36,952 nt of DNA from Psammoneis japonica (lineage: Eukaryota): positions 1 through 36,952 of the forward strand of contig QPGO01000373.1 of NCBI GenBank assembly GCA_008632985.1, in the 5' to 3' direction. Numbering within the stretch: the first letter of the stretch is position 1; each line of letters starts with the position of its first letter. Below are positions 5,591-36,952 of the stretch, one piece after another. The notes below the pieces were generated by a model that saw only the letters and a program-made list of their open reading frames with translations, searched no databases and was not told the origin of the DNA. Position numbers and translations under genes: made by a program.

Positions 5591-6236
5591 ACATGAAAAA
5601 ATTGCCAGTTATTCAGTGACTCCGTTTAAAAGAGTCATCCGTGAGATCATGACCTCGTATAGTCTCCTATAGAAAAATACGTCTACAAGCAGTCATGTAT
5701 GTTCTCAAGAATGTCGAGGTCATCTTCACGACATTTTGGAAATTTGTCGACATAGAGATATCCAACGTGGATCTCACGTGGCGCCAAAATTGATGTTTTG
5801 CAAGTCGTGGGTCATTTCAGAGACAAAATTGTCGCTCACAAAGTCATCATCGTTTCCCCGCATTCTGGATAATTTCGTTTCTCCGCAAGCTATCAAGGGG
5901 GCAAACCGGTACCGGTAAGACCCACCTCGATTGTGATCTCGGTTCATAAACAAATCCAGAATTGCAGAGCCGACAAGAGGTCATTACATTCGTGAAATTT
6001 GTTCTCTGCACCAAATTCAAAAAACGCAAATCGGGTGTTCTGTGTGCGAGTCATTTGAACCCCGCACATTTCACCGTTTATTTTGTTCACACAAAATTGA
6101 ATTCTCACATCAACTTCAGTGATCACAAGTCTCGAATAGGTACGTGATAATGAGAAACATAGATGATAACTAATAGTTCGCAACTCTTATTCTCACTTCT
6201 TTGCCCGAAAACCTAGAACAGAGTCTCGACATCACC

Positions 6237-7118
6237 ATGAATGAAACGCAAACCACAGTTCATTCTTTCGAAAATTTCACCACCGCTCCATCCTCGAAGA
6301 CGACTAAGAAGCGAAAATACAAGAAATCAAAGCCTCTGGATGCCCCCAAAAGACCTCTCAGTGCCTACAACATCTTCTTCCAAAGAGAACGTCAAAAGAT
6401 TGTAACGTCCTCCGCTATGCCAGATCCTCCGCCGAATAATAAACGGCGAGACCGAACCGTTCATGGCAAGATTAGCTTTGAAGATTTGGCCCGTACGGTA
6501 GGAAGCAGGTGGAAGACATTGGATAAAAGGACCAGAGCGAATTTTGAAGCCGAAGCCCAAACTGAGAGAGAACGCTATGCGATGGAAGTACGAGCCTGGC
6601 ACGAGATGCAACTAGGTAAAGGAAGGAAAAAGAGAGGGCGAAAGACATCGTACCAAGTCCACAAGTCGTCAAGAGCTGATTCGGTGAAAGCTCCCACCCC
6701 TCTTGTCACACCCACGTCTGGTGCAAAGGATCGACACAGGGATGTCACGGATGAAACCATTCCCAAGGAAATCCTTGTCCCATCCAACCTAAACAGTCGC
6801 CATCGCGCCCCAAGGTCTCCCGGCTCCATTCTTTTTGCTGTTCCCGCGCTAACCAGAGATCCCTACTTTGACCCAAATGCCCACCGCGAGTGTTTGGAAC
6901 TCACAATGCAAACCATTGAAAACGCAAAGGCGGCTCTCAAGGCGGCAAATCTACCAAAGGCTTGCGTCACTCCTAGCGAGGTCGACACTTTGGATACCTT
7001 TGATGCCAACTTCTGGGGAGAAGAAGAGGAACGACTCTTGTTGTGTCAAGACTTTTTGGCAACTCCACGAGTGTCGCTTGGATCGTTTTCCGAACAAGTC
7101 GAAGCCAACCACTCATAG
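6237..7118 (+). CDS. HMG-box DNA-binding protein (diatom-type)
   Basis: Uninterrupted ORF from the ATG at 6237. PKRPLSAYNIFFQRER...HGKISFEDLARTVGSRWK...ERERY is an HMG box. Normal TA and Tyr content. Confidence 0.9.
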   Translation: MNETQTTVHSFENFTTAPSSKTTKKRKYKKSKPLDAPKRPLSAYNIFFQRERQKIVTSSAMPDPPPNNKRRDRTVHGKISFEDLARTVGSRWKTLDKRTRANFEAEAQTERERYAMEVRAWHEMQLGKGRKKRGRKTSYQVHKSSRADSVKAPTPLVTPTSGAKDRHRDVTDETIPKEILVPSNLNSRHRAPRSPGSILFAVPALTRDPYFDPNAHRECLELTMQTIENAKAALKAANLPKACVTPSEVDTLDTFDANFWGEEEERLLLCQDFLATPRVSLGSFSEQVEANHS

Positions 7119-7196
7119 CGCAATCTCAGATACAAAAAGCTTTTCATCAAACCAATCTCTCTATAGATACTCGTTAAAGTAGTTTCATTACGACAC

Positions 7197-9104
7197 TCAC
7201 TGTTCGTTGGCTACCTTGTAGGCAATTTTATCGGGTCTCGCAACATCCCAAACCACCACGCTTACGACTTGCTCTTGTCTACATTCATTCAGTGTCAACG
7301 CGTCTGCGCCATTAAGCATGCTGGAGGATTCCAGCGCATGAGTATACACGACAAAGTAATGAGAACCAATGTCGTTGTCCTCCTTGTCGGAATTCTTGTC
7401 GTTTGTTGGAGAGGAATGCTGTTGTTGCTGTTGCTTGTGCATGATCATTTGCTCGGACGTGGCACTCACGAGCTCGTTGAGTGCACACGGCAAAATGGGC
7501 CCAACAAGTTCCACGGCACCATCTTTTTCGTTTCGAACTGTCAAGCGTTTCAAACACGAGTGTAAAAAGGGTCCGACGGTTCGTGTCAATAACAAAGGAA
7601 CACGGCGGTCGCCGTCGTCAAGGCCATGCGTGTTAAGGTACACCTCCAAGAACAAATCGACATTGTCTTGTTCCGAACTAATACAAATCGAAACGGACTT
7701 GTTGTCGGTGCTCGTTGTAATGGCATGCTTGACCTTGATGGAAACATCGGCACCCGCGGTAGTGCCGTGGACTTGTGCTTGTCGCAACGCTTCCAATTCG
7801 TCGCGGACATCATCGCTACTGCTCTGTGGAAGAGAGTTTTCTGTAACTGTCTTTTGCAACTGCTCAAACTCGACACCCTTTGATTCTAACTCATTTCGCA
7901 TTCGCTTTGTTGTTTTCGACAAGACAATGAGTGGTTTGTTTTCTTTGTTGAATCGAAACACGGCCGTGTGATTGTCCGCCAAGGCATAAAAGCATGCATT
8001 ATGGGGAGCCGCATCATTCTGGCTACTAGTATCCAACCACGACATGTACAGGGACCGAAAGGCTTGTTGCCATTCGCGTTTTTGGAACTCTGGATGTAAC
8101 GTTTCGTTGGAAGTACCTTCCAAGGGATTGGAAAAGCGTTGCATTTCGGCAAACCAAGCGGCGTCCCGCCCGCCCGTGTCGAATGCCGACTTTGCGGGAG
8201 GTTTTGCATCCGAGGTTGGTAAAATCATGTTGTTTTCCTCGTGTTCTATACTCTTGCGGTACGCCGGATATTGCCAATAATACTCTGCAGCTTGAGGTGA
8301 TGGTTTGGATTGTAGAAATTGTTGCATTCCACTTTCTGTGTTGTTGTCTGGCAGCAAGATGGGATGGTTCTCCATTCTTACACGCCGTTTAATGGAATAA
8401 TCCATCACGCCATTCTCCAAATCCGCCTCGTGCCAATCGTCATGTTGCGGTATTGGGGAAAGTAGCTGTTGCTTTTCCGGAGACGACGATGCTTTTCGAA
8501 ACGGAGACTGCAAGACGCTGTCCAACACGGAAAGCAATCCAAAGCCCCCGGGACTCCTCGCTGCAGCAGCTGTTGTTGTTGGAGTTTTGCGTGCCGGTGT
8601 TGTTGGGAGATTGGAATCCCAAGACACGTGACTTGTTTTTGTGGGTGACACCTCCTTGTCATCATTGCTGGGTGGCGTCGTTCGTTCCATGACGGCTCCA
8701 AACAACGAAGACGCTGATGATTTGCTTTTACTGCTGCGGCTTTCTGTAATGTTGCTTTCTTCTTGTGAGCATGGCAATTTTGTTTCTTCTGCTAAAAACA
8801 GTGATCGAGATGACGTGGATTTTCTTGATAATTTCGAAAAACTCGTAGTATTACCAGGAGAAAAGGTGGGAAGCGGCCTCAAGGAGGAGGACGACACGGG
8901 CAAACTGTTGGATCGTTGCAGCACGGGGCGTTTTTTGGATTGAGAGAGCTTCATACTGCCGGACCGTTTCAACTGCCGCCGTTTGCGAATCTGTCGTTTG
9001 CGTTCCTGCGCACTCATGACGGGAGACAACATGCTACTGCTACTACTAGTTTCATCCTTGTTGCTATTGTTGCTTTGAGATGACGACGACGACATCATGA
9101 TCAT
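7197..9104 (-). CDS. DONSON: DONSON (downstream neighbour of SON) family replication factor
   Basis: 635-aa intact ORF with a Ser-rich N-terminus. Motifs YWQYPA, WQQAFRSLY, FYALADNHTAVFR, TTKRMRNEL..KGVEF, VPLLL...PF and ELVGPILP match DONSON blocks as I recall them; not database-checked. Confidence 0.8.
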   Translation of the reverse strand: MIMMSSSSSQSNNSNKDETSSSSSMLSPVMSAQERKRQIRKRRQLKRSGSMKLSQSKKRPVLQRSNSLPVSSSSLRPLPTFSPGNTTSFSKLSRKSTSSRSLFLAEETKLPCSQEESNITESRSSKSKSSASSLFGAVMERTTPPSNDDKEVSPTKTSHVSWDSNLPTTPARKTPTTTAAAARSPGGFGLLSVLDSVLQSPFRKASSSPEKQQLLSPIPQHDDWHEADLENGVMDYSIKRRVRMENHPILLPDNNTESGMQQFLQSKPSPQAAEYYWQYPAYRKSIEHEENNMILPTSDAKPPAKSAFDTGGRDAAWFAEMQRFSNPLEGTSNETLHPEFQKREWQQAFRSLYMSWLDTSSQNDAAPHNACFYALADNHTAVFRFNKENKPLIVLSKTTKRMRNELESKGVEFEQLQKTVTENSLPQSSSDDVRDELEALRQAQVHGTTAGADVSIKVKHAITTSTDNKSVSICISSEQDNVDLFLEVYLNTHGLDDGDRRVPLLLTRTVGPFLHSCLKRLTVRNEKDGAVELVGPILPCALNELVSATSEQMIMHKQQQQQHSSPTNDKNSDKEDNDIGSHYFVVYTHALESSSMLNGADALTLNECRQEQVVSVVVWDVARPDKIAYKVANEQ

Positions 9105-9689
9105 GGTGCAAATCTGCGAGTTGTGTTGTTACTGACGACCGTCTGCCCGAGTGAGGGTTTTGAGTTGTTGTGTATGTACTGGTATAACTCCTACATACGA
9201 AGCTGTATACTATGAAACGAGTAAAAATTTTCGGTTTTGAATTTTTCCCGAAATTTTTTGTCAGGGCGTCTATAAAATAACCTTGGATGCGCAATGCCCT
9301 ACTTCGTCGATTTATCATCAGAGCGAGAAAAAGTCAAGTAAACAACCATCTGAAACGACAGCGATGATCGATGGTGGATGCAGCTGCAAGTTAAAGGTTG
9401 ACAGCAGCCACTCAAGGCCCCAAGACTTGAGTCATTGACAGAGCAAGCAATCACAACACAGTCTGACCTTGCTTCATTTTGGAGCAGCTGCTGCCAGCGC
9501 CAGCCCCGAATGTGACGTGGATTTGAAATTGCTGTTTCCCGATGCCATTGAGCATGGCACAGCAGAAGAAGTTCACAGCACTCTTCATGGGGTCATTGTC
9601 CAGTGGCTCTGAAGCCCTGCTGCTCTCATCAACATCCAGGCATGAGAAGTTTGCCACACCTTCAAAAATTGTGTGAGACAAAATGGGTG

Positions 9690-11255
9690 CACAACAGGTG
9701 TTGCTTTTGCACCAGGTTGATGATTTCTCCATTGCAGGTCCAGATGAGTTGCACACAACTAAGATTTTCAAAATTTGTCCAAATTGTCATCTCCACTCAA
9801 GAAACTTGTTGGTTCATGGACGATGCATTTGGTGGGGCGGGCAGACATCCATCAATGTGATGACTCTGTTTCAACTGCATGTCATGCACACCTGGGTTGC
9901 ATGTTTGTTTCACATGGCTGGGACAAGATTGCCAAAGATGATGATGCAATGGACTCCAAAGCTGCTGATTTGCCTGTGAGAATTTTGTCAAGAAGTTGTG
10001 CAAGGAAATGGCCCTCGTGGAGGCACTGCAAGTTTGGCAAACTTGCTGCAGAGGCTGGTTTTGGTTGCTGCACCCCCCTTGGTGAATTGTTGCATGCACA
10101 CAATTGTGACATGGTCCAAGTTTGCATCTGCTCTGGACATTGTCCATTGCTCTGCTTTGAAGAGTGTGGCCAAGCATTTTTGTCAGACCAACTGTTGGGA
10201 CACCAACTGCAAAAAACCCATTTGGGACAGCACTCCACTTGCTTGCCCACACTTGCCCACATCAGCAACTTGAGGAGGATCCACATCTTCCTGTGTTTCC
10301 CAAAATTGACAGACTTTCTTAATTGGCTGCCTTCTTGGATGCTGCTGCCAAAAGCAAAAGCCTGCACAATTGGCGCTCTGTGACTGGGTCTGTGTGTGCA
10401 TGTCAGCTGATGCAGCTGCAGCACATCAGTGCAAGACTCAGACAGTGGTGGCAACAAGTTCCACAGAGGCCAAGTTTTGCTGTGTTGTGGGCAACACTGC
10501 CAAGATGGTTCTTTGCTTTTGTTCTCTTCCTTGTGTCTTGCATGAGAGTTGGGTTTTGCTTGCACAGAAGGACTCTGCACCAGCACAACAACAAGAAGCT
10601 CATCATCAAGATTGTCAACAAGCAGAGTCCCACCGAGCAATCGGGGCACATTGACATGCAACATTTTGCAATCCAAGACTGGAAGGATGCCGAACATTTT
10701 GTTGCTGGACATGTTCCTGGCATCATTGACCCAAGCAATGACCTCAGCAAGGCACTCTTGGGTGGATGCTTCACATGCTCATCATGCTCCACGAATGATG
10801 GGAAATTGCCATTTGGTGTGGTTGGCACATTTTTTGGGATCATGTGGAATCACCCATTGGAAATTTGGGGTGCATGGATTTGTTCGGTTGACATTTCTGT
10901 TTCTGTTTGTTGGTGCATTTGCCATCAATTGCTTGTTGTCTGGCACATCTCTTTCTTCCTGTGTGACCTGCCCAGACTTCACAGACTGTGAGTGCAGAGC
11001 AGGGGAGGGTGTCAGCTTGCCCCCATGTGTGGGTTGCAGTCAGATGACTGTTTGGGAATGGTTGATGACTGGACCATTTCAGACAGCAGAGATGATCTCC
11101 ATCTGAGATCCTCTCATTCTTGACTGCAAGTGCACGTCTCACATTCACTGCCCAGTCCTTCAGGAGTCTTTCACCCCACAGCTGCCTCATCCTTTCCAGC
11201 ATGATCCTGACATTCAAAGCACCCCAGTTGCCTCATTCCTTTCAGCATCCTGACA
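9690..11255 (+). mobile_element. Degenerate Ty1/copia (CoDi-like) 3' remnant: RT, RNase H, PPT and LTR
   Basis: Broken frames carry LHQVDDFSIA (RT), PLGELLHAH, TVVATSSTEAKF and HIDMQHFAIQDW...PGIIDPSNDLSK (Copia RNase H). PPT AGCAGGGGAGGG precedes TGTCAG at 11010; CTGACA ends at 11212 and again at 11255. Confidence 0.85.
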
Positions 11256-11259
11256 TTTG

Positions 11260-14200
11260 AAGCTGCATTTTTTTCATTGCTGCTTTTTTTGCCACATTTG
11301 CTGAGTGCGCGACACTGCTCTCACTGAAAGCATCACAATGACCTGACATCAACACACTGCATCATCAAACAACAGCGCAAAATGCAACACATCATCTTGT
11401 TCAACAAAGAGCTCCAGGTTGCTTTGGCATTGTTTGCTGCATTAAGTCAGATGGTCTGTTTTGCCTTTGTTTGTGCCCTCATGAGACCATGTGAATCCTG
11501 GCACTGGACTCAGCAAAAATGGAGAATCAAGCACTGGCTTCTGCAGGCACCAGCTCACCGAAGAAACAAAGTTGCCACTTGCCACAAGCAAACAGAATGA
11601 GGTTTGCTCATGTGTGAAAAGCTTTTTAACATGTTCTCAATTCCAGTTGTTGCACTGTTGTCATTGCACCACATTTCACTTCCTGCCTGCTTGAGTGGAA
11701 GTGTCCTCAGACTTTCCCAACAACAGTCTCCTGGAGAGATTTCAGAAATGCATTTCTCCTGTGCTAATCAGGATGTTTTGATTGAGCACACTCATTGCTG
11801 AAGGCAGCAAATGACTGGTTTGTTGCAACTGTCCCTGTCAGCAGCCCTGCAAGCAAAAAAACGGTCTGTCCTCTGCCTTTTGGCATCTGTGTAAAAGTCA
11901 ATTTTTGTTTCCAAAATCGATTGGTTTTTCATTGCACAATGCTTCTTGTGTCTTCTAACATTGTCAGTTGACACAGGCATTTGCCAGGTTTGTGGTTCTG
12001 AGTGTGCCATTGCCGCTGTTGCAAGAAGGGCCTTTTTGTCACTCCAAGAGGACAGACTGGTCGTCAGTGGAATTCCACGTGATCTTTTGCAGCAGCATCA
12101 TGGCAAGTCCACAATGCACACTCTTGTTGAATGACATGGGACCACAAGCTCTCATCCATTGTTGTTTTGCCTTGTCACTGGCATTTTGCATGCAGTCGTG
12201 TGTCACGAATTAGAAATGCACAATGTAAAAATCATCCATCAATGAGGACAATCAATGACAGAAAATCTGTGCAAGTTCTCAAACCGCAGATGCTCTTTAA
12301 AAAAATGGCCATGCGCCGTCTTTGCCCCCAATTGTGCTGTGATGCAGCACTCTTTTGTCCCGCTGTTTTCACAAAGATCTTCACTGACCTTCTGACCAAC
12401 ACCAGCAGATGGGGCAACCATGTGAAACAATGGGAAGCCACTCTTAGAGTGGTTTTGCACACTGTGCCACACACAGTTTGCTCTTCCAAGAGGACAGACT
12501 GGTTTTCACAATGCAAACATTGAAACTTCACTTTTCCACGTGATGACAAGCAGACCATCTTCACCAAGCTAGATGAGCTTGAGAATCACAGAATTGCAGT
12601 TGACTGTGGTTTTGTCAACTCACGCGACATTGACAAAAAAAAGTGTCGGGACAGATTTTGTCTTGCGTCTTGGGTCTGCACTTTGACCGGGGTTGCTCTT
12701 TCTGCGAGCATGAGCCAACTGTTCTTTTCATGGAGAAATGATTGCTGTGTCAAGAAATGAGAAAGAAGGTCTGCTTGACTGGATCTCATGCTCAGGCAGG
12801 GAACACACAAACAACCACTTCTCTCGACAAATGTCATTCATGCTTGGTGGAATGGCAACCTTTGCTGAGGCATGCAGCACAACTCTCCCTTGCAAGTCAC
12901 CTGCGCTGAAGACTGAGATCTACACACCACCCCTCATCTGGTCCAAGAAGGTCTTCATCAAAAAGGAATGTCTGCAGGGCACCATCTGTTTTTTCTGCAA
13001 TGCACGCTGCCTTGCCTGGACAATTCCTCCTCTTGGCATTGGTGAGCTCCTCAAACAGCTTTGTTAAGATTTTGCCTGCCTGTGCCATGGCTGACCTGCA
13101 ACAATTGCACTCTTGTTGCAATCATTTTTTGACTGTTTTCTGCCATTCAAAATGACAGCATGTTGCCTCCAATTCATGTTTCTGAGATGTGAGAGCTCAG
13201 AGCTTCACAAAGAGCATCTCCACAAGCCCCAAACTGAGATTGTGCCAAAGTTTGGCAATCAGGTGCTCAAACTCTGCCTGTGAAGAAGTGCACAGCACTC
13301 AGAAGGAAACCAAAAGTGAAAATCTTGTGTGAGAACAATGGAGCCACTGTGAGTTGGACTGGCAAAAGAAAGCACCTCTTCATCACCACCCACTCGGTGT
13401 TGTTTTTTCTCTCTGTGCCCCTCTTTGCCAAATCATGCAAGAAGTCCACTCACTCTTTCCACATGAGACCTGGCAGAAGAATTGGATGACAGCCAAACTC
13501 TTGAAAACAGATGGGCCAACACGACTGCATTTTTTGTCATGTGCAGAATTTGTGCTGAAAGCCTCACAGACATGTTTCACATGCCCAGAGATGACATGTG
13601 CACCTTGAAATTTGTGACAATTTTTGAAGTTGCAACAGACGCGTTCCAGCCCTAGGTGGGAGCTCGTAGTACTGACGTGTGACACAAATAATTTTTATCA
13701 TCCGTCGTATGTTTCGCACGTACATTTCTACGTGTGATATTTAAAAAAATTGTCCAGACTCGCTGTTTTGCGAAGCCCCAGACATTTTATATAACGAATT
13801 TATAGAAACAATAATGGGCCAGTTACATTCTTCAATGTCTGAAGAATGTAACTGGCTAAGTAAAAAATGTTGTACTTCAATCATGGGCGAGTTTGTGCGT
13901 TCGCAAAATTGCCTCATTTTCTGTTGGCGATCATTGACATTTTAATTACCGTATAATTTTACTGCGGAGCTCGCACGTAGAATTCTACGGGCCCAATGTC
14001 ACACGGATTCCCACCTACGTCTGGAACGCGTCAACAGTCACAGGGGCTTGCATCTGTTCCCATGCCAGGTCACAAACATGGCAATTTCCTGCAGAGCAAC
14101 AGACAAAGAAATCACCTTGGTTCCTTGGGTGTGCACATCGCCAGACTTCACTGATGACATCAAAGCAAGAATCCTCTAACACACGGCAACAGGTGTGGCA

Positions 14201-22948: not shown

Positions 22949-23874
22949 GCCTGCAGTCCAGCTTGGGTTTGGGAGCAGGGCTTCCCACAGCACCAGCAAA
23001 GCAAATCCACTCCTGCAATTGGACTGGTTTGTCCCACTCACTAGTTTGGGACACCTCTGCCGAGGATGAACAAGAAAAGTGGAGAGAGCCACTGTCCTCA
23101 TGCAATCTGCAAAGAGGGACTCCGAATTCCCTCCCTTGTTGAAAGTGCTCAAAGTTGCATTGGCAAGCAAAGGTCATCATCATCGGTGTTGTTTGTGTTT
23201 TTCCTCTCCATCTCATTCTTTGGAGAATGACAACAGCAAGCCGGATCTAGATGGCCAATTTTGCTCCCACCTCTCCCGCCCTCTGGCCTGCCGTCCAGCT
23301 TGGGTTTGGGAGCAGGGCTTCTTACAGCGCCAGTGAAGCCAACTCCACTCCTGCAATTGGATTGGTTTGTCCCACTCACTGGTTTGGGACACCTCTGCTG
23401 AGGACAAACGAGAAAAGTGGCAAGAGCCGCTGCGCACCCTGCAGTGCCAGTTCTACAGCACGTTTCTTTTGCATTCCTGAACGATCACAAAAACATCACA
23501 AGTCACTTCTCATTCTAACATCATGCCAGCAGTTCCGTCAATCAAACCATCTCATCTCTACAAGGCGTCACTCGCCCTCATGGCAACCGGATGGCTTGCA
23601 AGACCCTCGGCAGCATGATTCTTTTCGTCATGGATTCCGGGCTTGTGCTTGGGCATGCCCTGCAGCACGCCATCCCAAGGCTCATAAAAAGGCTCACAAC
23701 TGGTTTGAAGACATCTTCTGATGTCGTCCAATTGATGATGTGGACAATGAGTCAGAGAGGTTCTACGACTGGGATCGTTGAGTGCTGTGATCTAGAAGCT
23801 CACTTTTTCTCTTGTCTGTCGACAACGTTGCGCCAGCTCAGTGCACAGTGAATTCACTTCACGCGTTTTTTACG

Positions 23875-24990
23875 ATGACTTCCAACGATGCTACGATGCC
23901 CTCCTTCGAACTCACCGGACAATGGGACACTCCGAAATGCTTCAAGGGGCCCACCACGAAGTTTGAAGTTCGAGACGTCCCTGACGACATCCACAGCGGA
24001 ATGCACGAAAAGAAAGTGACGTCTTTCAGCGGCGAGTGTGGCGATGATGACCCTCATTTCTCATGTGATTTCTCAAGACAGGTGAAGGAGATCTTTGACC
24101 ATGAGCCCTGCGAAGCAGGCCTGTCCAAGTTCGGCGTCTTCTCCACTTGTCTCGCCGGCACAGCGAAGACCGATTGGGAGCGAGTGCGACAGGAATTTGA
24201 AGATCCGGCGCTGGAGACAGAGGACATGTTCCAAGCCATCCTTGAAACATTCAAGACACATTGCTTCAAGAGCGACACACCTCGATGCGACCAGATCGAA
24301 CATCTGAAGACTGTCAAGAAATCGTCCGGAGCGACTTGCAAACAGTTGTCTCGGCGACAGACAGCATGATGACCGACCTTCAGCAATTTCCGCTGGACGT
24401 CAACAATGAAGGTGAGCCGCTGGACACTCAGCCCACCTTGTCTGACAATGACTGCGTCAACATGCTCATCAAGAGCGCACCGCAAGCTTGGCACGACAAA
24501 CTCACGGCCAACGGCACGAACCCTCGCAACCTCACCAAAAAGGACCTGAAAGAGTGATTCCACCGCATGGAAAAAGCAGAGAAATGCAAAGAGAAATGCT
24601 GCAAGCACTCCAACGACCGTCATCATGGAAGCGACGACCACGACAAAAAAAAAGAACGATCGCAAGACATCTCATGAGGGAACGTCCGGACACAAGATTC
24701 CCCGGAAATCCAAATGCTGCGACTTTTGCAAAAAGGCCGGACACAATGACCAAGACTGCAACCACCCTGGACATCTGCATCACAAGAAAGCATCCTTCAA
24801 ACACGACGACCGAGACAAAAATAACTGCCGCGACAAAGATCGGAACGACCGTCACCGCAAGCATCACTGTCACATCTCCGACGAAGAATCGGACCGATCA
24901 CATTGCTCTTCCAGTGACAAATCCTCGGACTACAATGACGGACGAGCACGTAAAATCCGCCGTTCCGAGAAACAGAATAAAAAAATGTGA
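23875..24990 (+). pseudogene. gag: Gypsy gag (disrupted)
   Basis: ATG at 23875, then frameshifts and stops. CCHC knuckle CDFCKKAGHNDQDC. Tyr is almost absent. Confidence 0.8.
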
Positions 24991-27900
24991 ATCTAGTGGC
25001 GAACTATCTGATGACCACCGGTTCAACTACTTACAAGACAAGATAGATCACGCGAAAGCGGAGCGTAGAAACGCCGCGATCACGAGAAATTTTTTATATC
25101 CGATTAAGCCGATTGGCGCCAAAATCGCAAAGAAAAAGCGCAAAACGGCAGTGTTAGCAGCTACAGTGCTACCAGAAGACGACTCTGTTACTGGATCAAG
25201 CACACTATCATTACTGGACTCTGGAAGCTCTGCTTCCCTCATACACAAATCTCAAGTGCCACGCAGATTCTGGCAAAAAATCAAATCTACCAGTTTTAAT
25301 ACAAAAACCGGCGAGTTCACATGTCGTTATAGAGTCTCATGTGACATAGCCTTACCAGAACTATCCACTACCAAAACCTTCCGATGGTCATTTTACGTTG
25401 ATGAAACAGATGACTCGACTTACGGCGTTATCCTTGGAAGCGACTGTCTCGAGGAACTCGAAATTGACCTATTGTATTCGTCAAAAACGATCCAATGGGG
25501 AGACTCATGGGCTCCAATGCGTAGCCATGATGAAGTAAAGAAAGGATCGGAAGCAGAAGAAATATTCTGGCAGATGCAATCCGACGAACATGATGCCGAC
25601 GCAAGCGAAATACTAAAAGATACCGCTTCGCGCGCAACTAAAATTTTAGACGCTAAATATGAAAAGGCAGACCTCGACAAAATAGTCGATGAATGCTCTA
25701 CTCTAAATAAAAAACAAAAGAAACAACTACTAAAGCTATTAAAGAGCCACGAAACTCTGTTCGATGGCACGCTCGGCGACTTCGACTGCGAACCAGCCGA
25801 CCTCCAAACAAAACCGGGCGAGGACATTCCGTATCACGCGAAACGAGCCTTCAGCGTCCCGCACATCCACAGAGACACCCTATACAAAGAAATACAACGA
25901 TTGGAGGCATTAGGAGTACTGAGAAAAAACGACTCCAGCCGCCATGCATACCCTACCTTCATTATCCCAAAGAAAAACAAAACGGTCCGCTTCGTATCCG
26001 ATTTCCGGAAACTCAACGCGAGACTCCGGCGAGAGCCATGTCCTCCGCCGACAATACAAGAAATATTACAACACCTACAAGGGTTTCAATATGCAACATC
26101 GTTAGATCTCAACATGGGATACTACACGATTAGACTTACCCCAGCAGCACAAGAAATGTGCACGATCATCACCCCGTGGGGGAAATACGGCTACCAACGC
26201 CTACCAATGGGAGTAGCAGTAGCGTCAGATATTTTTCAACTCAAAATGATGCAACTCATGCAAGGTCTAGAGAATTTTGTACGCACTTACCTTGATGACT
26301 TACTCCTTATTGGCCAAGGATCCTTCGAAGAACACTTGGACCAACTCAGCCAGGTCTTGACTAGGCTTCAAAAAGCCGGACTGAAAGTCAAACGCCGCAA
26401 AATCTACATTCTTTGCTACTGAGATAGAATACCTTGGTTTCTGGTTAACCAGGGAAGGGATAAAACCTATGCCAAACAAGGTAGCAGCAATAAATGAGAT
26501 TGCAAGACCAGAGACACAAAAAGAACTTCGCCGATTCATCGGCATGATAAACTTCTACCGCGATATGTGGAAGTCAAGGTCCCACTTAATCGCGCCACTT
26601 ACCGAGTTAATATCAAATAAGAAAAAGAAAAAACTCAACTGGCTCCCCATACATGAAAGAGCCTTCCAAGCAATCAAAGAGGTACTCAGCCGAGACGTAA
26701 TGCTGGCGTACCCCGACTTCTCAAAATATTTACAATCCACGTCGACGCGAGCGACTATCAACTCGGCGCCATAATCTCCCAGGAGGGAAAACCAATAGCT
26801 TTTTACAGTAGGAAACTGAACAAAGCACAAAGGAACTACACTACAACAGAAAGAGAACTGCTCTCTATCGTAGAGTGCCTTCGAGAATACAGAAACATCT
26901 TGTTAGGACACAAAATAGAAGTTTTCACGGACCATATCAATTTGACTTACGAAACGGCGTCATCAGCGCGAGTGCATCGCTGGCGCCTATTTACAGAAGA
27001 GTTCGGACCCACCTTGACGTTCATCAAAGGTGAGGAAAACACCGCAGCCGATGCAATCAGCCGGCTCGCGAAAGAAATACCGACTACGACAGTCGAAGGC
27101 CACGACGGCAGCGCGCCCCAACAATCAAATACTCAGCAGCCGGAGCGAATCACGCAATCCGAGCAGCTCTTCGTACAAACCCGAACTCGAAAGAAAAGAA
27201 AGCTAACAGAGAAAGCTAGAGCTCTCCAGGAAAAAGCTCAATCGCGATCCCAGCCGACCCGTAAGCGAAGGCGCCTGGAAAAAAGAAAAGAGGAAAATGT
27301 TCCCACTGATGGTTTGCCCATCAGCTATAACACTATCGCGAAACATCAATGGAAAGATACAAAACTATGTGAGAAACTTGAAACAGATAGCAATTACACG
27401 ATCAAAAAAATGGGCGATAACGACATCATTTTCTATAACAACGACCGCATGCCGATTCCGCGACCGCTCAGAAAATCACTGGTCGACTGGTATCATATCA
27501 ACCTCTGTCATCCCGGAGCGGATCGAACAGAAGAAACAATCAAACGCAATTTTATATGGAAAAACTTACGCGACGACGTACGAGACCGTGTAACACATTG
27601 TGACGAGTGTCAACGGCTCAAACGGCATACCAAAAAATACGGCCATCTTCCTGCCAAAATAGCAGAATACCATCCGTGGCGCAAACTTTGTGTGGATCTC
27701 ATAGGCCCCTACAAAGTACAGACCGCCGACGGAAAAATACACGAGCTGAAAGCACTCACCATGATCGACCCGGCCACATCGTGGTTTGAAATCAAAGAAA
27801 TACCCGATGCTACTAGCGAGACGGCTGCATTAATAGTCGACAGAGAATGGTTCTGCCGATATCCCCGTCCTCAAAAAATAACATACGATCAAGGCGGCGA

Positions 27901-28450
27901 GTTTACAGGCCAAGAATTTCAGGATCTGTTAGAATCCCATGGAATCAAAGCCAAACCAGCATCAAGCCGAAACCCACAGTCGAACAGCGTCATCGAACGC
28001 GTCCACCTTACTCTCCATATATGTTGCGCACGTTTGACTTACAAATACAAACACCAGACCCGATCCATCCCTGGTCAGGACACTTAGCCAATGCAGCTTA
28101 CGCTGTCAGAAGCACTTGCCACACCACACTCCAAGCCACTCCAGCAGAATTGGCATTTGGACGAGACATGATTTTTGATCAAAAATTCAGGGCTGATTGG
28201 GATCAAATTCGACGTCGCAAGCAACGACTAATCGACCAAAACAACAAGTGCGAAAATTTAAAACGAACAGAACATTTGTGCCGCGCAGGCGACCGCATGC
28301 TGCACAAAAGACGCGACGGACGCAAGCACGAATGCCATTGCGACGGCCTGCACGACATCATTGAGGCATGTTCCAATGGCACAGTGCGAATCCAAGCCGG
28401 TCGAAGGATCAAAGAGCGCATTAACATCCGCCTTCTACATCCTTGCAAAT
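24990..28450 (+). pseudogene. pol: Gypsy pol (protease, RT, RNase H, integrase) with ~3 frameshifts
   Basis: LLDSGSS, LDLNMGYY, RLPMG, YLDD, HVDASDYQLG, HHCC finger (HINLCHPG...CDEC) and the DDE triad VDLIGP / YDQGGEF / IERVH. Frameshifts near 26390, 26730 and 28020. Confidence 0.93.
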
Positions 28451-29356
28451 CACGACATTGGGTTCTTGCTTCACCCTTGGGGAAGCGAATGCAGTGCGCC
28501 ATCCCAAGGCTCACAAAAAGGCTCGTGACTAATTTGAAGATGTCTTCTGACGTCGTCCAATTGATGATGTGGACAATGAGTCAGAGAGGTTCTATGACTA
28601 GGATCGTTGAGTGCCATGATCTAGAAGCTCACACTTTTTCTCTTGTCTGTTGATGACGTTGTGCCAGCTCAGTGCACGCCCCTCTTTTTCGCGGGTGCCA
28701 AGTTTGCCATTGATTCAAAGCAAACATTCAAGAGAACCCATGCCCCCATGATGGGTGGTCCGACCCAAGATTCTCCCTTGCACACGGACGGAGAGTTTGC
28801 ATTGACTCGGAATCCCACGTGCCTTGGGATTGCCATTGCGCCAGGTGGAGCTGCACTGGCGACAAACTGTGCGTGGCATTTCGTGTTTCCAGTTGCAAAT
28901 GCTTTGGCAATGAATCACAGCTGCACTCCTGTAGAAGAACAGCAGCTCGAAGATGAGTTTGGCACAGTTCATTTGAAAAACAAGCGCAGAGTGCCACGTT
29001 GGACATAGAAAAGGAATGATCAGATGTGGAGCCAGCATTGCGTTTGCTCATCTCGGGCTGGATGTAGACACGCGCTCGAGTCAGACGTTTCGAAGCCAAA
29101 TCGATGGTTTCATTTTGCTGTGTTCTCAAACAATTTGCTGCAAAGCCGCGCCAAAGACTTGCAGGTGTTGCATCAGCAATGCTGCTGACACCGTCAATGG
29201 AAGGTCTTGTGTCTGGGGATGGTGCCATGTGAGTGCATGGTGGAACTGGTTTGGATTTCTTTTAGAGATGCAACAGAATCTAGTCCACACTGAGAACAAG
29301 ACAACACACCGGCAGAGCCGACAACTTTGCAGAGAGAAATTCTTCTGATCAATCTT

Positions 29357-30346
29357 TCATCGAATCTCCAGCTGCACAGTGGGGCATCCTGCTTGAGCCT
29401 TGTGTTGATCAAACACTCTTTGCAGTTCATTCACATGTTGCTTTGGCAGCTCTTGGATCTGCTGTGGTGTCGGATTTGCCACTTTTTCAGCCTCAACGGG
29501 GTCACCCAACACCGTGCTGCATTTGACTGGACAGGGCAATGGCGAGCCGCACTGTCCCCAGAAAAACATGAACGCAGCCGGGTGTCGTCTTGAAATCTCT
29601 TCAAATTCAACTTGATGACAAAAAGCATTCCCACCAAAGACATGCACTGGAATGAGACTTGCGCCGGTTTGCAGCGCGAGCTTCATGAGCCCATGTCGCG
29701 TGGCCTTGACCACGTGTGTTTTGGGCCGTGATGAAAACATTTCCGCCAATCTGCCCGGCAACAAAAACAGATTTTGACCTTGACTCATTTTTTGGCAGAG
29801 CACATTTCGACTCGCAGGTCCCGCCGATCCCCAGCAAAGCACTTGTCTCAGCAGCGGAGTGCGCGTCACAACCGTGGCGGCTGCGCCAAAGCCGTGTTGG
29901 GTCGGCAAGTGCTGACTGCAGAATGCCATCCAAAGAAAAGCCTGGAAAGGAGTCACGCCGTGTGGGTGCATGGCGCAAATGCACAACTGGGATGTTTCTT
30001 TTTCGGTGAGATGCGCCGCATCGTTTGCAATCAAGTTGTGATGCAAATCGAAAAGCTCGCGCCAGAGCTTGAAAACACTTCAAAAGCGTGGCCACGGTTT
30101 GTGAGGATGTGTCATGAGAATGAAGTCAATTATGAGCAAAACAAGCGATGCCTTTAAGGAACAAAACAAAAGAACTGGAACGAGCAACACCATGGCCAGT
30201 CCAGTGCAAAACAAACAAGGAACAATCAGCGCGAGAATCCATGCTGTGATTTTGTTGGCTCGTGTTGGTGGAAACCTCTGAGATGCGGCTCGAACCAAGG
30301 TTGGGGATCTCGCGTGTGCACCTTTAGCGGCGTTCTGCTGGCTCAT
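29357..30346 (-). pseudogene. DGAT2: DGAT2/MGAT-family acyltransferase pseudogene
   Basis: HPHG motif, then PLLRQVL, LLPGRLAEM, RHGLMKLALQTGASLIPVHVFG and VLGDP. The N-terminal TM segment lies in another frame (shift near 30080). No Tyr in the 229-aa ORF. Confidence 0.85.
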
Positions 30347-31580
30347 GTTGAGCATTTGACGTGCTCTAATGCACGTGGACGAGGCTAATAAAACCGTCGA
30401 CAACGCCAGAGTGCGCATCTGCGGCATGGTAAGTGCGGTCATAACGGCGGCATGGAAATCTGATTGGACAAACGACGTCAGCTAAGAACTTTTTTCTTAA
30501 CAATAAGTAAAGATGACATCATCCTTACCCCACCATCCGCCCCGCCCCCAGTCGCCGTGCGCCGCCGCCATGCATGCAACAACTTCAAAGAAAAAGTCCC
30601 AAGAGCAAGAGAGAGACACACACTGTGTGCGCAAACAGAAGGCACGTACCGCCCATGACAGCGGCAACTTTCGGACTAGTGAGCATAAAAATAACACCAT
30701 TAGAACCGCAGTGTTTTTGTTAGCATGGATATGTTGTTTCTCTTTTTGTTCAATGCACGTGCGACACTCTCATGGGATAATTTCTTCAACTGTCAAGTAG
30801 AAAGTTTTGCACCGTCCTTCTCGGGCCATTTAGTCTACCTACTCTAAAATCATTTAACTTACAAATAACACCGTTCAATCCGCCATATCTAAATTACTCT
30901 GTACGGTAGTTTCTGTGTCATAGAGATCTAGTTTAGGGACCTTATGCATGGCTTTCTGCGATGCAAGAAAAGACCTGAAAAATTCTTGCGATACAACAGG
31001 TCCATTTTGGAAAGAAGTACGCAAATCGTTACCATTTCCTTCTCGTCACATGTCATATCTACTTCATATTATCGATTGATACTACTTCTAAAGTCATAAA
31101 GTCGAGAGAAGTTGTCCAAAACAACCACACACCGCCATGGCGACTTGCACAAAAAAAACACATCTCATTCCACGTACAATTCTACGCGCGGCTTCAGTAC
31201 TTGACGTGATGCTTCTCGATACAGTGTGCTGTTCTGTAATAGTGCGTGCGTACTACAGTAGAGGCCTTACCGAGTCGTACGACTTGTTCTCATGCGACTT
31301 CGGAGAAACTCTCGATTTATTTAGCTGGCGGGCAGCCTCGCGAAGCCGTACGAAGTCCACTGAAGTCGCGTGATTTTGCCGATCACACGACTTGCGAGCC
31401 GATTTTCAGCTCTTGAAGTCGTGTAGTGTCGGAACATCTGTGGTATGTCTTCTACGCAATCTTCGCGTAAGGTGCTCGCACGACTTGTTCGAGAACCCTC
31501 GCCTCCAACTTGCCTCCAAAGAACAAAAGCACACAAAAACACACACCGGCATCGATGGGCCATGAGATAACACCGGCACC

Positions 31581-32675
31581 ATGGCAGAGAAAAAAACAAC
31601 CTGCGACTTCGAAAGTGCTCTTGATGCTCTGATGCATCCAGATAAACTTGGTGTTGGAGATGAAAACTCTCCACCAACTGGGCATGCCGCTGGAAAAGGG
31701 GATTGCACCGATGGGGACGTGACGATTGTTGGGGTGAAGCCCTCCGCGTGCAACAACATTGCCGACAGAGAACCTTTGTTGGAGGTTCCAAACATCCCAA
31801 AGGAGGCTGACATTGAGGAAATGGAAGGAAAGAGGCGCCTGCCAAACCTGACAAAAGAGGTCAATCAAGAGCTCTGTTGGGATCTCTTGACGTTGATTAG
31901 CACGCGAAATGCCCACTTGCCAATGCCAACGGGTGAGAGCGATCCAAAATGGGAGGAGGTTTTCTACTTGTTCTATGATCCTGTTAAAGGACCAGCGAGA
32001 GGCTATTCTCCGCCACAGGCACCAACCAAAATTCGCAATTGGCGCGAAGCAAATCTCAAAAGAGTTCGTGTTTTGGCCGCGAAGTATGATGCAAAGGCGG
32101 GGAAAGGAGCTGAGAAGGATGCGACGGGATGTGAGGTTCTGGCAAAGACTCTCAATGAAGCAAGACTTTCAGCACAGGCAGCAAAGAAAGATGAGACTCA
32201 AGAGGAACGCAACAAAGCAGCAGCGAGAAAAGCGACAAACGAGAGCTGTGAGTCGGAGCTTGGCCTCACACCTCCAGCTCCATTCAATGGAGGCAAGCAC
32301 TCAACCTGGAGCCATGACGTTGAGCCAACCATAGTTACAACTGTTGGGCGCCTGGATGGATCAGCAAGTGGAGACAGTCGGTCAAGGGATTTTGTGATGA
32401 ATTTGGAGGACGCCCAGAAAGGGGCTGAATCCTTGTTTTCAAATCTATCAAGTGGAATGGCCTTCGGCTCCCCTGAGCTGCAAGCATCCAAGAAGCGCAA
32501 GCTGGATGTGGAAACATTGCGTGAGCTATATATGCTCAAGAGCGATGTGGAAAAAAGCGGGAAAAAGGACGAGCGTCTAAGCGCTTTCTATGGAGCCATG
32601 TCTGAGGAAGTTTTTTCGTCTTTAGGCAAAAAGCCTGCCGAATCCAATGCCACCACCAAACCATCCACAAAATGA
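31581..32675 (+). CDS. Accessory ORF of the Harbinger-like element (putative Myb/SANT-like DNA-binding protein)
   Basis: Open 364-aa frame inside the TIRs, with spaced Trp residues (KWEEVF...IRNW), a charged helical stretch and a KKRK NLS-like motif. Function is inferred from the element architecture. Confidence 0.6.
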   Translation: MAEKKTTCDFESALDALMHPDKLGVGDENSPPTGHAAGKGDCTDGDVTIVGVKPSACNNIADREPLLEVPNIPKEADIEEMEGKRRLPNLTKEVNQELCWDLLTLISTRNAHLPMPTGESDPKWEEVFYLFYDPVKGPARGYSPPQAPTKIRNWREANLKRVRVLAAKYDAKAGKGAEKDATGCEVLAKTLNEARLSAQAAKKDETQEERNKAAARKATNESCESELGLTPPAPFNGGKHSTWSHDVEPTIVTTVGRLDGSASGDSRSRDFVMNLEDAQKGAESLFSNLSSGMAFGSPELQASKKRKLDVETLRELYMLKSDVEKSGKKDERLSAFYGAMSEEVFSSLGKKPAESNATTKPSTK

Positions 32676-32744: not shown

Positions 32745-34150
32745 TTGATCAAACAGCGTGCACTTTGACTTAAAGGTCGTTTGGATATGTGAATGCCGAT
32801 TCGGTTGTACTAGAGGTATGAAAACAAAAGTAACATTATTGGAAAGCGCTTGTTCTGTAGATAAAATTGTTGCCATTGATTGTTGCAAAACTCTTAGTCC
32901 TTCTAAAGCAACGCCTACTTGAGCAAACGCACTGGGATTTTGGCGCGCAACTGCGGGTCGGCAGGATATATGAATACCGATTCGGTTGTACTTGAGGTAT
33001 GAAAACAAAAGTAATACCATTAGAACGCTCTCATTCTGTAGATAATGTTACTGCTATTGATTGTGTCATAATTTTAAGTTCTTCTAAAGCAACGCCTACT
33101 TGAGCAAAACGTATTGGGATTTTGGCGCGCAAGTGCGGGGTCGGTAGGATATATGAATACCGATTCGGTTGTACTTGAGATATGAAAACAAAAGTAATAC
33201 CATTAGAACGATCTCATTCTGTAGATAATGTTACTGCTATTGAATGTGTCATAATTTTAAGTTCTTCTAAAGCAACGCCTACTTGAGCAAAACGCATTGG
33301 GATTTGGGCGCGCAAGTGCGGGGTCGGTAGGATATATGAATACCGATTCGGTTGTACTTGAGGTATGAAAACAAAAGTAATACCATTAGAACGCTCTCGA
33401 TCTGTAGATAATGTTAATGCCATTGATTGTGTCATAATTTTAAGTTCTTCTAAAGCAACGCCTACTTGAGCAAAACGCATTGGGATTTGGGCGCGAAAAA
33501 GTGCGGGGTCGGCAGGATATATGAATGCTGATTCGGTTGTACTCGAGGTATGAAAACAAAAGTAATACCATTAGAACACTCTCAATCTGTAGATAATGTT
33601 ACTGCTATTGATTGTGTCATAATTTTAAGTTCTTCTAAAGCAACGCCTACTTGAGCAAACGCATTGGGATTTGGGCGCGCAAGTGCGGGGTCGGCAGGAT
33701 ATATGAATACCGATTCGGTTGTACTCGAGGTATGAAAACAAAAGTAATACCATTAGAACGCTCTCAATCTGTAGATAATGTTACTGCTATTGATTGTGTC
33801 ATAATTTTAAGTTCTTCTAAAGCAACGCCTACTTGAGCAAAACGCATTGGGATTTGGGCGCGCAAGTGCGGGGTCGGTAGGATATATGAATACCGATTCG
33901 GTTGTACTCGAGGTATGAAAACAAAAGTAACACCATTAGAACGTCTCGATCTGTAGATAATGTTAATGCCATTGATTGTCCCATAATTCCCAGTGCTTCT
34001 AAAGCAACGCCTTGTTAAGCAAAACGCACTTGGACTTTTTGGCGCACAATAACTGCGGCGTCGTTTGGACAAGTCAATGACGATTCCGATCCGCTAGAGG
34101 TGTTGAAACAAAAAATAACATACCTCTGGAAAGCACTTATTCTCTAGACA
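32745..34150. repeat. Internal tandem array, ~183-bp monomer, ~7.5 copies
   Basis: GAATRCYGATTCGGTTGTACT starts at 32791, 32972, 33155, 33338, 33523, 33705 and 33888. The edge copies are diverged. Confidence 0.95.
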
Positions 34151-35620: not shown

Positions 35621-35987
35621 TCCTTTCAAGGATGTGGACCAAAGCAAATGGTGAGTGCGCAGCAAAGATTGACCACCGGTGGGAAGCGCATGGTTTCTGT
35701 GCCGGTGAGGAGTGCGCCTCGTTGCAGCACGGCGGCGATGTCCATTGTGGCGGCGAGGAGCCCTTGGCATTTCCACTGCAGTTGTTTTGTTCTTTCTTCA
35801 TTTTGTGCTTGATGGTTTTGATTCGAAACTGAAGACGCGAAGCCGCTTCGAACAACCCATGCGACATGGTCGCCGCTCTTGTCGCACGACTTCGGAGCTT
35901 GCGGCTTCACTTGAAGAGCTGATGGCGTGCACCCGCGCGTGCCGATCACGCACGATCACAAGTCGTGCGACTCGGCAAGGACACTCT

Positions 35988-36952
35988 AGTGGCCTCACCG
36001 AGTCGTGCGACTTGTTCTCATGTGACTTCGGAGAAACTCTCGATTTGTTTAGCTGGCGGGCAGCCTCACGAAGCCGTGCGAAGTCCACTGAAGTCGCGTG
36101 ATTTTGCCGATCACACGACTTGCGAGCTGATTTTCAGCTCTTGAAGTCGTGCAGTGTCGGAACATCTGTGGTGTGTCTTCCATGCAATCTTCGCGTAAGG
36201 TGCTCGCACGACTTGTTCGAGAACCCTCGCCTCCAACTTGCCTCCAAAGAACAAAAGCACACAAAAACACACACCGGCATCGATGGGCCATGAGATGACA
36301 CCGGCACCATGGCAGAGAAAAAAACAACCTGCGACTTCGAAAGTGCTCTTGATGCTCTGATGCGTCCAGATAAACTTGGTGTTGGAGATGAAAACTCTCC
36401 ACCAACTGGGCATGCCGCTGGAAAAGGGGATTGCACCGATGGGGACGTGACGATTGTTGGGGTGAAGCCCTCCGCGTGCAACAACATTGCCGACAGAGAA
36501 CCTTTGTTGGAGGTTCCAAACATCCCAAAGGAGGCTGACATTGAGGAAATGGAAGGAAAGAGGTGCCTGCCAAACCTGACAAAAGAGGTCAATCAAGAGC
36601 TCTGTTGGGATCTCTTGACATTGATCAGCATGCGAAATGCCCACTTGCCAATGCCAACGGGTGAGAGCGATCCAAAATGGGAGGAGGTTTTCTACTTGTT
36701 CTATGATCCTGTTAAAGGACCAGCGAGAGGCCATTCTCCGCCACAGGCACCAACCAAAATTTGCAATTGGCGCAAAGCAAATCTCAAAAGAATTCGTGTT
36801 TTGGCCGCGAAGCATGATGCAAAGGCGGGGAAAGGAGCTGAGAAGGATGCGACGGGATGTGAGGTTCTGGCAAAGACTCTCAATGAAGCAAGGCTTTCAG
36901 CACAGGCAGCAAAGAAAGATGAGACTCAAGAGGAACGCAACAAAGCAGCAGC
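35988..36952 (+). mobile_element. Harbinger-like transposon copy 2 (partial; accessory ORF ATG at 36309; runs off the window)
   Basis: Collinear with 31260-32224 at an offset of 4728, with about 24 substitutions and no indels seen. Confidence 0.93.

Follow-up and report, generated by a model that had tools for sequence, protein, structure and literature searches.

Context-dependent loss of TpA through A:T to G:C transitions in silent DNA of the diatom Psammoneis japonica

Sharp-edged blocks in the genome of the diatom Psammoneis japonica have lost most of their TpA dinucleotides. Here, we describe these blocks in contig QPGO01000373.1 (C374; assembly GCA_008632985.1, 91.4 Mb, 597 contigs), the whole of which, positions 1–36,952, is the window of this study. 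In ascomycetes, repeat-induced point mutation (RIP; RID/DNMT4) requires homologous repeats that pair, takes place before meiosis, leaves mutations clustered by strand, and introduces stop codons. Like the process described here, RIP hits repeats with transitions at one dinucleotide, has sharp edges, and can extend into genes nearby. However, it runs from CpA to TpA, opposite to the TpA to CpA/TpG changes seen here, and its strand-coordinated runs are not seen in our data. A second system, TpA hypermutation of integrated nucleocytoplasmic large DNA virus and virophage DNA, is described for Bigelowiella natans in the accessible text of a preprint (Mettrop et al., bioRxiv 10.64898/2026.01.13.699255). 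Of 231 de novo changes there, lying in two viral regions, 230 were A:T>G:C at TpA, ~1000-fold above background; a second copy was not needed, and an ADAT2-type deaminase was proposed. As far as that text goes, the two genomes share TpA>TpG/CpA changes on both strands, a nearly pure A:T>G:C outcome, an association with silent or foreign regions, and gradual accumulation. They differ in that B. natans belongs to another lineage and its changes were observed de novo, mainly in two viral regions, whereas P. japonica carries a near-saturated scar over about half of a blind sample that takes in transposons, satellites, and copies of host genes. The process described here is not RIP; it works like the B. 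natans system and shows its testable features, namely A:T>G:C change almost only at TpA, on both strands, in silent regions, with genes spared. The preprint text mentions neither flanking context nor diatoms, so the preference for TAY over TAR reported below (R, purine; Y, pyrimidine) is absent from that text, and our literature search, whose coverage excluded most subscription journals, found no diatom report of TpA depletion or of TpA>CpA/TpG mutation. The quantified context rule is a new, testable element of a barely known kind of process.

A preliminary description of the window, made by eye, had claimed that about 12 of some 15 TA sites surviving in positions 9360–13630 are YTAR. Exact counting returned the same figures: 15 TA against 302 expected from base counts (and 43 CG against 233 expected), 12 of them YTAR (TTAA, six; CTAA, three; TTAG, two; CTAG, one), the other three being two RTAR sites (both TGTAAA) and one YTAY site (TCTACA). 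YTAR makes up 21.5% of the local N[TA/TG/CA]N pool, giving a binomial p of 2.3e-6 for 12/15; without the site at the block edge, 11 of 14 are YTAR (p = 4e-5 against 25%). The survivors lie at 9392 (the edge site), 9760, 10320, 11443, 11627, 11765, 11892, 11956, 12211, 12226, 12298, 12445, 12570, 12921, and 13065. Two-state segmentation of the window on TA density into TpA-depleted and intact blocks placed this main erased block, to which no strand is assigned, at 9398–13646, with 14 TA, 43 CG, and 971 TG plus CA. All depleted blocks of the window, which are sharp-edged, hold 89 TA, of which 51 are YTAR and two RTAY; the intact blocks hold 641 TA, with 122 YTAR (19%) and 179 RTAY. The same bias had been suspected elsewhere in the window, and the depleted blocks other than the main one indeed gave YTAR at 40 of 75 TA. 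Eight of these 40 are the CTAG of a single satellite unit, repeated across 1–2832, where they make up 8 of 11 TA; the satellite was therefore counted as a single site.

Twelve 10-kb stretches at arbitrary coordinates elsewhere in the assembly served as a blind sample and agreed with the window. They were segmented, segments below 500 bases were dropped, 30 bases were trimmed from each edge, and duplicate 22-mers were removed. Depleted DNA made up 58.8 of 118.4 kb, about half, and YTAR accounted for 162 of 293 TA in depleted DNA versus 388 of 2334 in intact DNA. Survival, taken as a TpA context class in depleted DNA relative to intact DNA, was 0.37 at YTAR sites, 0.078 at mixed sites, and 0.019 at RTAY sites. 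An additive two-hazard fit per strand (TAR 0.50, TAY 1.98, about fourfold) predicts 0.084 for mixed sites; across all collected loci (461 kb), survival was 0.27, 0.068, and 0.014 in the same order, with 0.062 predicted for mixed sites. These figures bear out the suggestion that RTA/TAY contexts are preferred targets and that YTAR is resistant without being immune. Nevertheless, YTAR is a simplification: survival falls from TTAA (0.58) through CTAA/TTAG (0.33) to CTAG (0.22), with 0.14 for the non-YTAR contexts GTAA/TTAC, and a following A-run protects, survivors being enriched more strongly for A at +1 (2.05-fold) and at +2 (1.86-fold) than for G at +1 (1.29-fold). CTAG was kept at only 1 of 15 aligned sites, counter to a simple YTAR rule.

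Substitutions were then read directly from aligned copies. The collected loci gave 2752 alignments, in 208 of which one copy was TA-rich and the other TA-poor; these were picked on overall TA density and not on context, and 21 of the pairs were chosen by hand. Since they share sites, a reduced set of 8 pairs, one from each family, was also formed, with 27 sites of other fate excluded. The 21 pairs align 801 TA sites, of which 321 had become CA, 305 TG, and only nine CG, while 118 were kept and 48 had changed otherwise. YTAR survived at 56 of 159 sites, mixed sites at 61 of 451, and RTAY at 1 of 191 (28/64, 27/191, and 1/104 with one pair per family). At the mixed sites of the reduced set the TAY strand was hit 107 times versus 57 for the other (p = 1e-4), so that TAY is hit faster than TAR in alignments as well. 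A competing-hazard fit assigned a factor of 3.6 to a 3' pyrimidine and of 1.5 to a purine at –2, and wider flanks improved it further. Of 605 pairs of adjacent hits, 287 shared a strand (301.5 ± 12.2 in simulation), showing no clustering. A burst or processive action was rejected on this absence of strand runs and on young copies that carry single hits.

The substitution spectrum was taken from the six least-diverged pairs. Of 542 adenines in TA, 258 had changed to G, six to C, and two to T; by triplet, A>G affected TAC at 98/150, TAT at 91/140, and TAG at 36/107. Rates in AA contexts were at background for AAA (6/394) and AAG (2/200), with 9/201 for AAC and a raised 24/272 for AAT (reverse, 2/232); GAT was hit at 5/161, and CAY about tenfold less than TAY. 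Adenines outside TpA show the same 3'-pyrimidine bias (VAY 65/1157 versus VAR 25/1383), although this VAY component is minor (0.056 versus 0.476 at TA). A>C (30/3082) was little above C>A (18/2409). CpG decay toward AT amounted to 80/554 in erased DNA, and TpA loss ran ahead of CpG loss (19/22 versus 1/20; 20/28 versus 3/25; 64/78 versus 17/91 in the DGAT2 gene discussed below). Survivors re-created by C>T (e.g. CTAG from CCAG) were rejected as the main cause of the pattern, given that new TA sites numbered 0–5 per pair, with none in DGAT2, and that four of the six survivors in an erased repeat at 11847–12505 align to TA of intact copies. Within the window, a partly erased Harbinger-associated repeat (31259–32224, plus strand; 18 TA) and its more erased copy (35987–36952, plus strand; 7 TA) are 97.5% identical, and 11 of their 13 A:T>G:C differences fall at TpA; the TTAG to TCAG difference previously noted between them was seen again. 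Overall, the change is almost exclusively A:T>G:C, on both strands and unclustered. So narrow a context calls for a process with chemical specificity, and as a description a context-dependent TpA mutator is near certain.

The direction of change is clear. Individual sites read TG in some copies and CA in others, which implies a TA ancestor, and the cleanest polarized test is a host gene, DGAT2, whose region at 28674–30408 (minus strand) is a TpA-erased allele with 11 TA versus 79 in its counterpart on contig C300 (CG, 88 versus 91). C300 includes the corresponding region from another haplotype; host genes align to it at 88.8% and DGAT2 at 89.7%. From the C300 allele to the window allele we counted 110 A>G versus 26 in reverse, whereas the intact host genes at 5610–9393 gave a symmetric 54 versus 53. 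In the window allele, 64 of 78 TpA were lost, all 11 Tyr codons of the aligned exon were changed, and the Pfam score was 96 bits, versus 110.5 for the TA-rich allele. Run X1 has contigs identical to the erased allele (0 differences; depth ~30–35), along with the intact allele at ~54–63, about 2:1 (both among the 16 of 154 pieces listed). Run X1 excludes a consensus artefact and is not independent support, as it may be the source sample, its library being unrecorded. The depths (54–63 intact versus 31–35 erased) also hint at three copies of DGAT2. Among the X2 contigs listed over DGAT2 there are four, all with intact-allele letters only; the kind of X2 is uncertain.

Next, we considered how DNA becomes a target. 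The erased DGAT2 allele has one other assembled copy, that on C300, with a read depth of ~2:1 (intact:erased). It adjoins a gypsy long terminal repeat (LTR) retrotransposon (23661–28677, plus strand; an empty site in C300) whose ends are erased despite the lack of close relatives (best 80%), and whose pol core (~24930–28200) is intact. Host genes are mostly spared, except for this transposon-flanked DGAT2 allele and duplicated methyltransferase genes, tandem or duplicated copies of which on C297 and C301 are also TpA-erased. Thirty copies of a miniature inverted-repeat transposable element (MITE) at 96–98% identity are nearly untouched, although age confounds their comparison with the erased gypsy ends and DGAT2. 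Because an erased host allele lies beside fresh insertions while the adjacent gypsy core is spared, we infer that targeting follows chromatin domains, and that spreading from neighboring repeats would fit better than homology pairing; age and the 2:1 depth leave room for the latter. The intact ~3.3-kb pol core between erased ends may mark an erasure front moving inward, or a core replaced by recombination. Metagenomic relatives of the gypsy element (0 of 28 TpA-erased; observed/expected 0.68–1.03) are uninformative, as the search finds only intact elements.

The young MITE copies also bear on timing. The 30 were taken as best matches, which favors copies with few changes; 12 of them have one or two TpA hits of their own, with TAY sites hit 12 times (32 sites) and TAR sites four times (28 sites). 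Each of the 29 copies retrieved is bordered by erased DNA on at least one side, and 23 are on both. Such hits within erased surroundings point to a gradual process acting after insertion, and erasure is probably recent or ongoing. The placement of these copies suggests a preference for inserting into erased domains, or survival there. Elsewhere, 10 kb at C9:400001–410000 combines intermediate TpA loss (3–10 per 500 bases) with full CpG; this may be a domain midway through erasure, which would help in estimating rates.

The data show a targeted mutator that turns the A:T pair of 5'-TA-3' into G:C once the DNA sits in a transposon-rich domain. The A of each strand is hit independently and gradually, at a rate raised about 3–4-fold by a following C or T and modestly by a purine at –2, and lowered before an A-run. 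YTAR is then the slow context on both strands and RTAY the fast one on both, giving the observed survivors, and a first hit removes the 5' T of the partner A, so that sites end as TG or CA and rarely as CG. As for the chemistry, we propose that A would be deaminated to hypoxanthine, which is read as G, by a zinc deaminase of the TadA/ADAT2 fold recruited to silent chromatin, and the role may be genome defense that kills by missense (Tyr codons are TAY) and not by new stop codons. That such an adenine deaminase acts in silent chromatin domains is a hypothesis we consider about as apt to hold as to fail. The A>G-only product, the 5' T, the favored 3' pyrimidine, and the disfavored AAA resemble deamination of the TadA/ADAT2 type: the accessible text on the TadA-derived editor ABE7.10 reports YAY favored and AAA disfavored (PMC10188366). 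According to the same source, however, ABE7.10 is engineered, guided, acts on single-stranded DNA in R-loops, and tolerates a 5' C, whereas here a 5' T is near-obligatory. Amphioxus BjADAT2/3 shows that a tRNA deaminase found in nature can also act on A in DNA, although the part of that report available gives preferences for GAA, TCG, and hairpin loops, and editing of C as well, neither of which fits here (PMC10354150).

The P. japonica genome encodes an ADAT2-like candidate (on C26) with HAE and PCxxC motifs, a TadA-like gene, dCMP and other housekeeping deaminases, and two A_deamin loci (C40 and C79). The ADAT2-like gene has N at the presumed equivalent of TadA D108, and the TadA-like gene has an N-terminal extension that is presumably organelle-targeting. 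The second A_deamin gene (C79:344558–345390), besides the ADAT1-like one on C40, directly adjoins an erased block. Around C79:88500, a deaminase domain lies in frame with an apparent second domain, presumably a 2OG-Fe(II) oxygenase, and the locus probably serves purine or pyrimidine salvage. A search for MPG/AAG-family glycosylases gave 0 matches in the genome, a weak result as only 4 of 14 controls matched. Separately, the DNA_methylase search returned 27 matches (contigs C43, C10, C59, C78, C27, C301, and C297).

Several points weigh against a TadA/ADAT-fold deaminase. No responsible enzyme emerged, the deaminase set being ordinary housekeeping with no expansion or chromatin-domain fusion seen; the CA accepted by ABE7.10 stands against the near-sparing of CAY here; the natural ADAT2 with activity on A in DNA has the other preferences given above; and the lack of strand clustering misfits a processive single-strand deaminase. 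In addition, in four older gypsy relatives (72–79% identical) YTAR survived no better than mixed sites (3/25 versus 19/155), although the scarcity of RTAY (1/79) and the strand bias (94 versus 42) both still hold.

Thymine could instead be the target. The T of 5'-RTA-3' would be modified (e.g. oxidized to 5-hydroxymethyl- or 5-formyluracil) or miscopied with G opposite, yielding T>C, with a speculative link to a RID/DNMT4-like enzyme, TpA>CpA being RIP's CpA>TpA reversed. A site that reads RTA along the T strand reads TAY along the A strand, and all context data therefore suit this reading just as well; the genome also has several C5-methyltransferase genes, of which two intact ones (on C10 and C59) look DNMT4/RID-like by their motifs. 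DNMT4 is reported as ancestral in diatoms, with function unknown, in the accessible part of PMC9998398. Oxidized T would be expected to yield some transversions, and almost none were seen; a Tet_JBP search gave 0 matches, though no control matched either. Moreover, we know of no chemistry that turns T into C through a C5-methyltransferase. We regard a thymine target as unlikely. The preliminary description had argued from this specificity for an enzyme rather than GC-biased gene conversion: its rejection of gene conversion stands, while its enzymatic part does not follow, as sequence cannot separate A deamination from T modification or miscopying.

Error-prone patch repair of the polymerase (Pol) eta type at T:G mismatches from deaminated 5-methylcytosine, with collateral A>G at WA, would draw on the CpG decay in the same blocks, on the raised AAT, and on the match of TA to WA whichever strand is read. 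WA sites are hotspots of Pol eta, whose A>G at TA in somatic hypermutation is alike (PMC7884765, as far as accessible). However, WA includes AA, which is at background here except for AAT; transversions are not raised; TpA loss is far ahead of CpG loss; and the strand clustering that excision patches should leave is missing. Such repair is quite improbable.

A similarly low probability attaches to a route in which TpA in silent domains first receives N6-methyladenine (6mA), which later becomes G by deamination or miscopying, so that the context reflects the methyltransferase. This would account for domain targeting and gradual accumulation; AAT and TAT are both favored, and eukaryotic 6mA prefers ApT. 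Against it, TAC is hit as often as TAT, GAT is rarely hit, and ApT is only mildly depleted; an MT-A70 search gave 0 matches, again with no control matching.

An ADAR-like enzyme that edits DNA paired with RNA in hybrids formed at silenced repeats seems very improbable, despite the two A_deamin loci and a matching 5' U/T preference, as the B. natans authors point out (10.64898/2026.01.13.699255, accessible text). UAG is the optimal ADAR context (PMC5137428, accessible text), yet TAG is slow here relative to TAC and TAT; there is neither strand bias nor clustering, and the frames scanned contained no double-stranded RNA-binding domain. Finally, the absence of any special process (gene conversion, selection, reversed polarity, or assembly error) can be dismissed as extremely improbable even though the net TpA change is weak-to-strong. 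Gene conversion fails because A>C is barely above C>A and because those pairs also show CpG>TpG, the opposite trend. Reversed polarity, in which the TA-rich copies would be products of ordinary RIP, fails because one site reads TG or CA by copy and the TA-rich DGAT2 allele scores higher and keeps its 11 Tyr, and assembly error is countered by the X1 contigs that match the erased allele beside the intact one.

To our knowledge, natural DNA adenine deaminases are essentially unknown, and adenine base editors thus had to be engineered; TpA erasure across silent DNA points to such a deaminase activity or to equally unknown thymine chemistry. We tentatively raise a wider possibility, in which a chromatin-guided DNA adenine deaminase with a 5'-TAY preference would be a natural diatom genome defense, possibly shared with Rhizaria. 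Such a system would be the A-to-G equivalent of RIP and APOBEC, would work without pairing of repeats, would pass from transposons to the alleles next to them, and would account for the rewriting of about half of the sampled DNA. If true, it would rank as the first natural DNA adenine editor to work at genome scale. The fingerprint (a required 5' T, an effect of ~4x from a 3' pyrimidine, protection by A-runs, hits unclustered by strand, and independence of CpG decay) can be used to score candidate enzymes and knock-outs, and the context can be set against the flanks of the 231 de novo mutations in B. natans, to see whether one system operates in both of these distant algae. The finding also bears on the dating and annotation of transposons in such genomes, and on allele loss beside new insertions, as at DGAT2.

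The remaining features of the window are as follows. The main erased block overlaps a decayed retroelement-like stretch (9360–11846, plus strand), presumably Copia-like by its reverse transcriptase/RNase H motifs; it has a decayed homolog, 70–76% identical, at the matching place in C300. Pfam returned no relevant match for it, and Atlas, IMG/VR, and local tblastx lent no support to a name. An erased copy of a ~700-bp MITE-like repeat with inverted ends follows (11847–12505, no strand assigned), with TA-rich and erased copies elsewhere, and then the rest of the block (12506–13632, no strand assigned; 3 TA versus 83 expected). Between haplotypes, 9400–13630 is 70–86% identical and the flanking genes 89%, as expected if each haplotype was erased independently. 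A young ~400-bp MITE with normal TpA (13633–14036, no strand assigned; 29 TA) is inserted into erased DNA and belongs to the high-copy family of the young copies above (1428 first-look candidates). The intact host genes used as control (5610–9393) include an HMG-box open reading frame (6177–7118, plus strand), with which a phage search came back empty, and one of 643 aa (7197–9128, minus strand). At the start of the window lies the TpA-erased 187-bp satellite (1–2832, no strand assigned), in which the recurrent CTAG survivor is one site in many copies. A 183-bp satellite inside the Harbinger-associated element (32775–34033) is untouched, with TA observed/expected near 1, yet it is erased in copies elsewhere.

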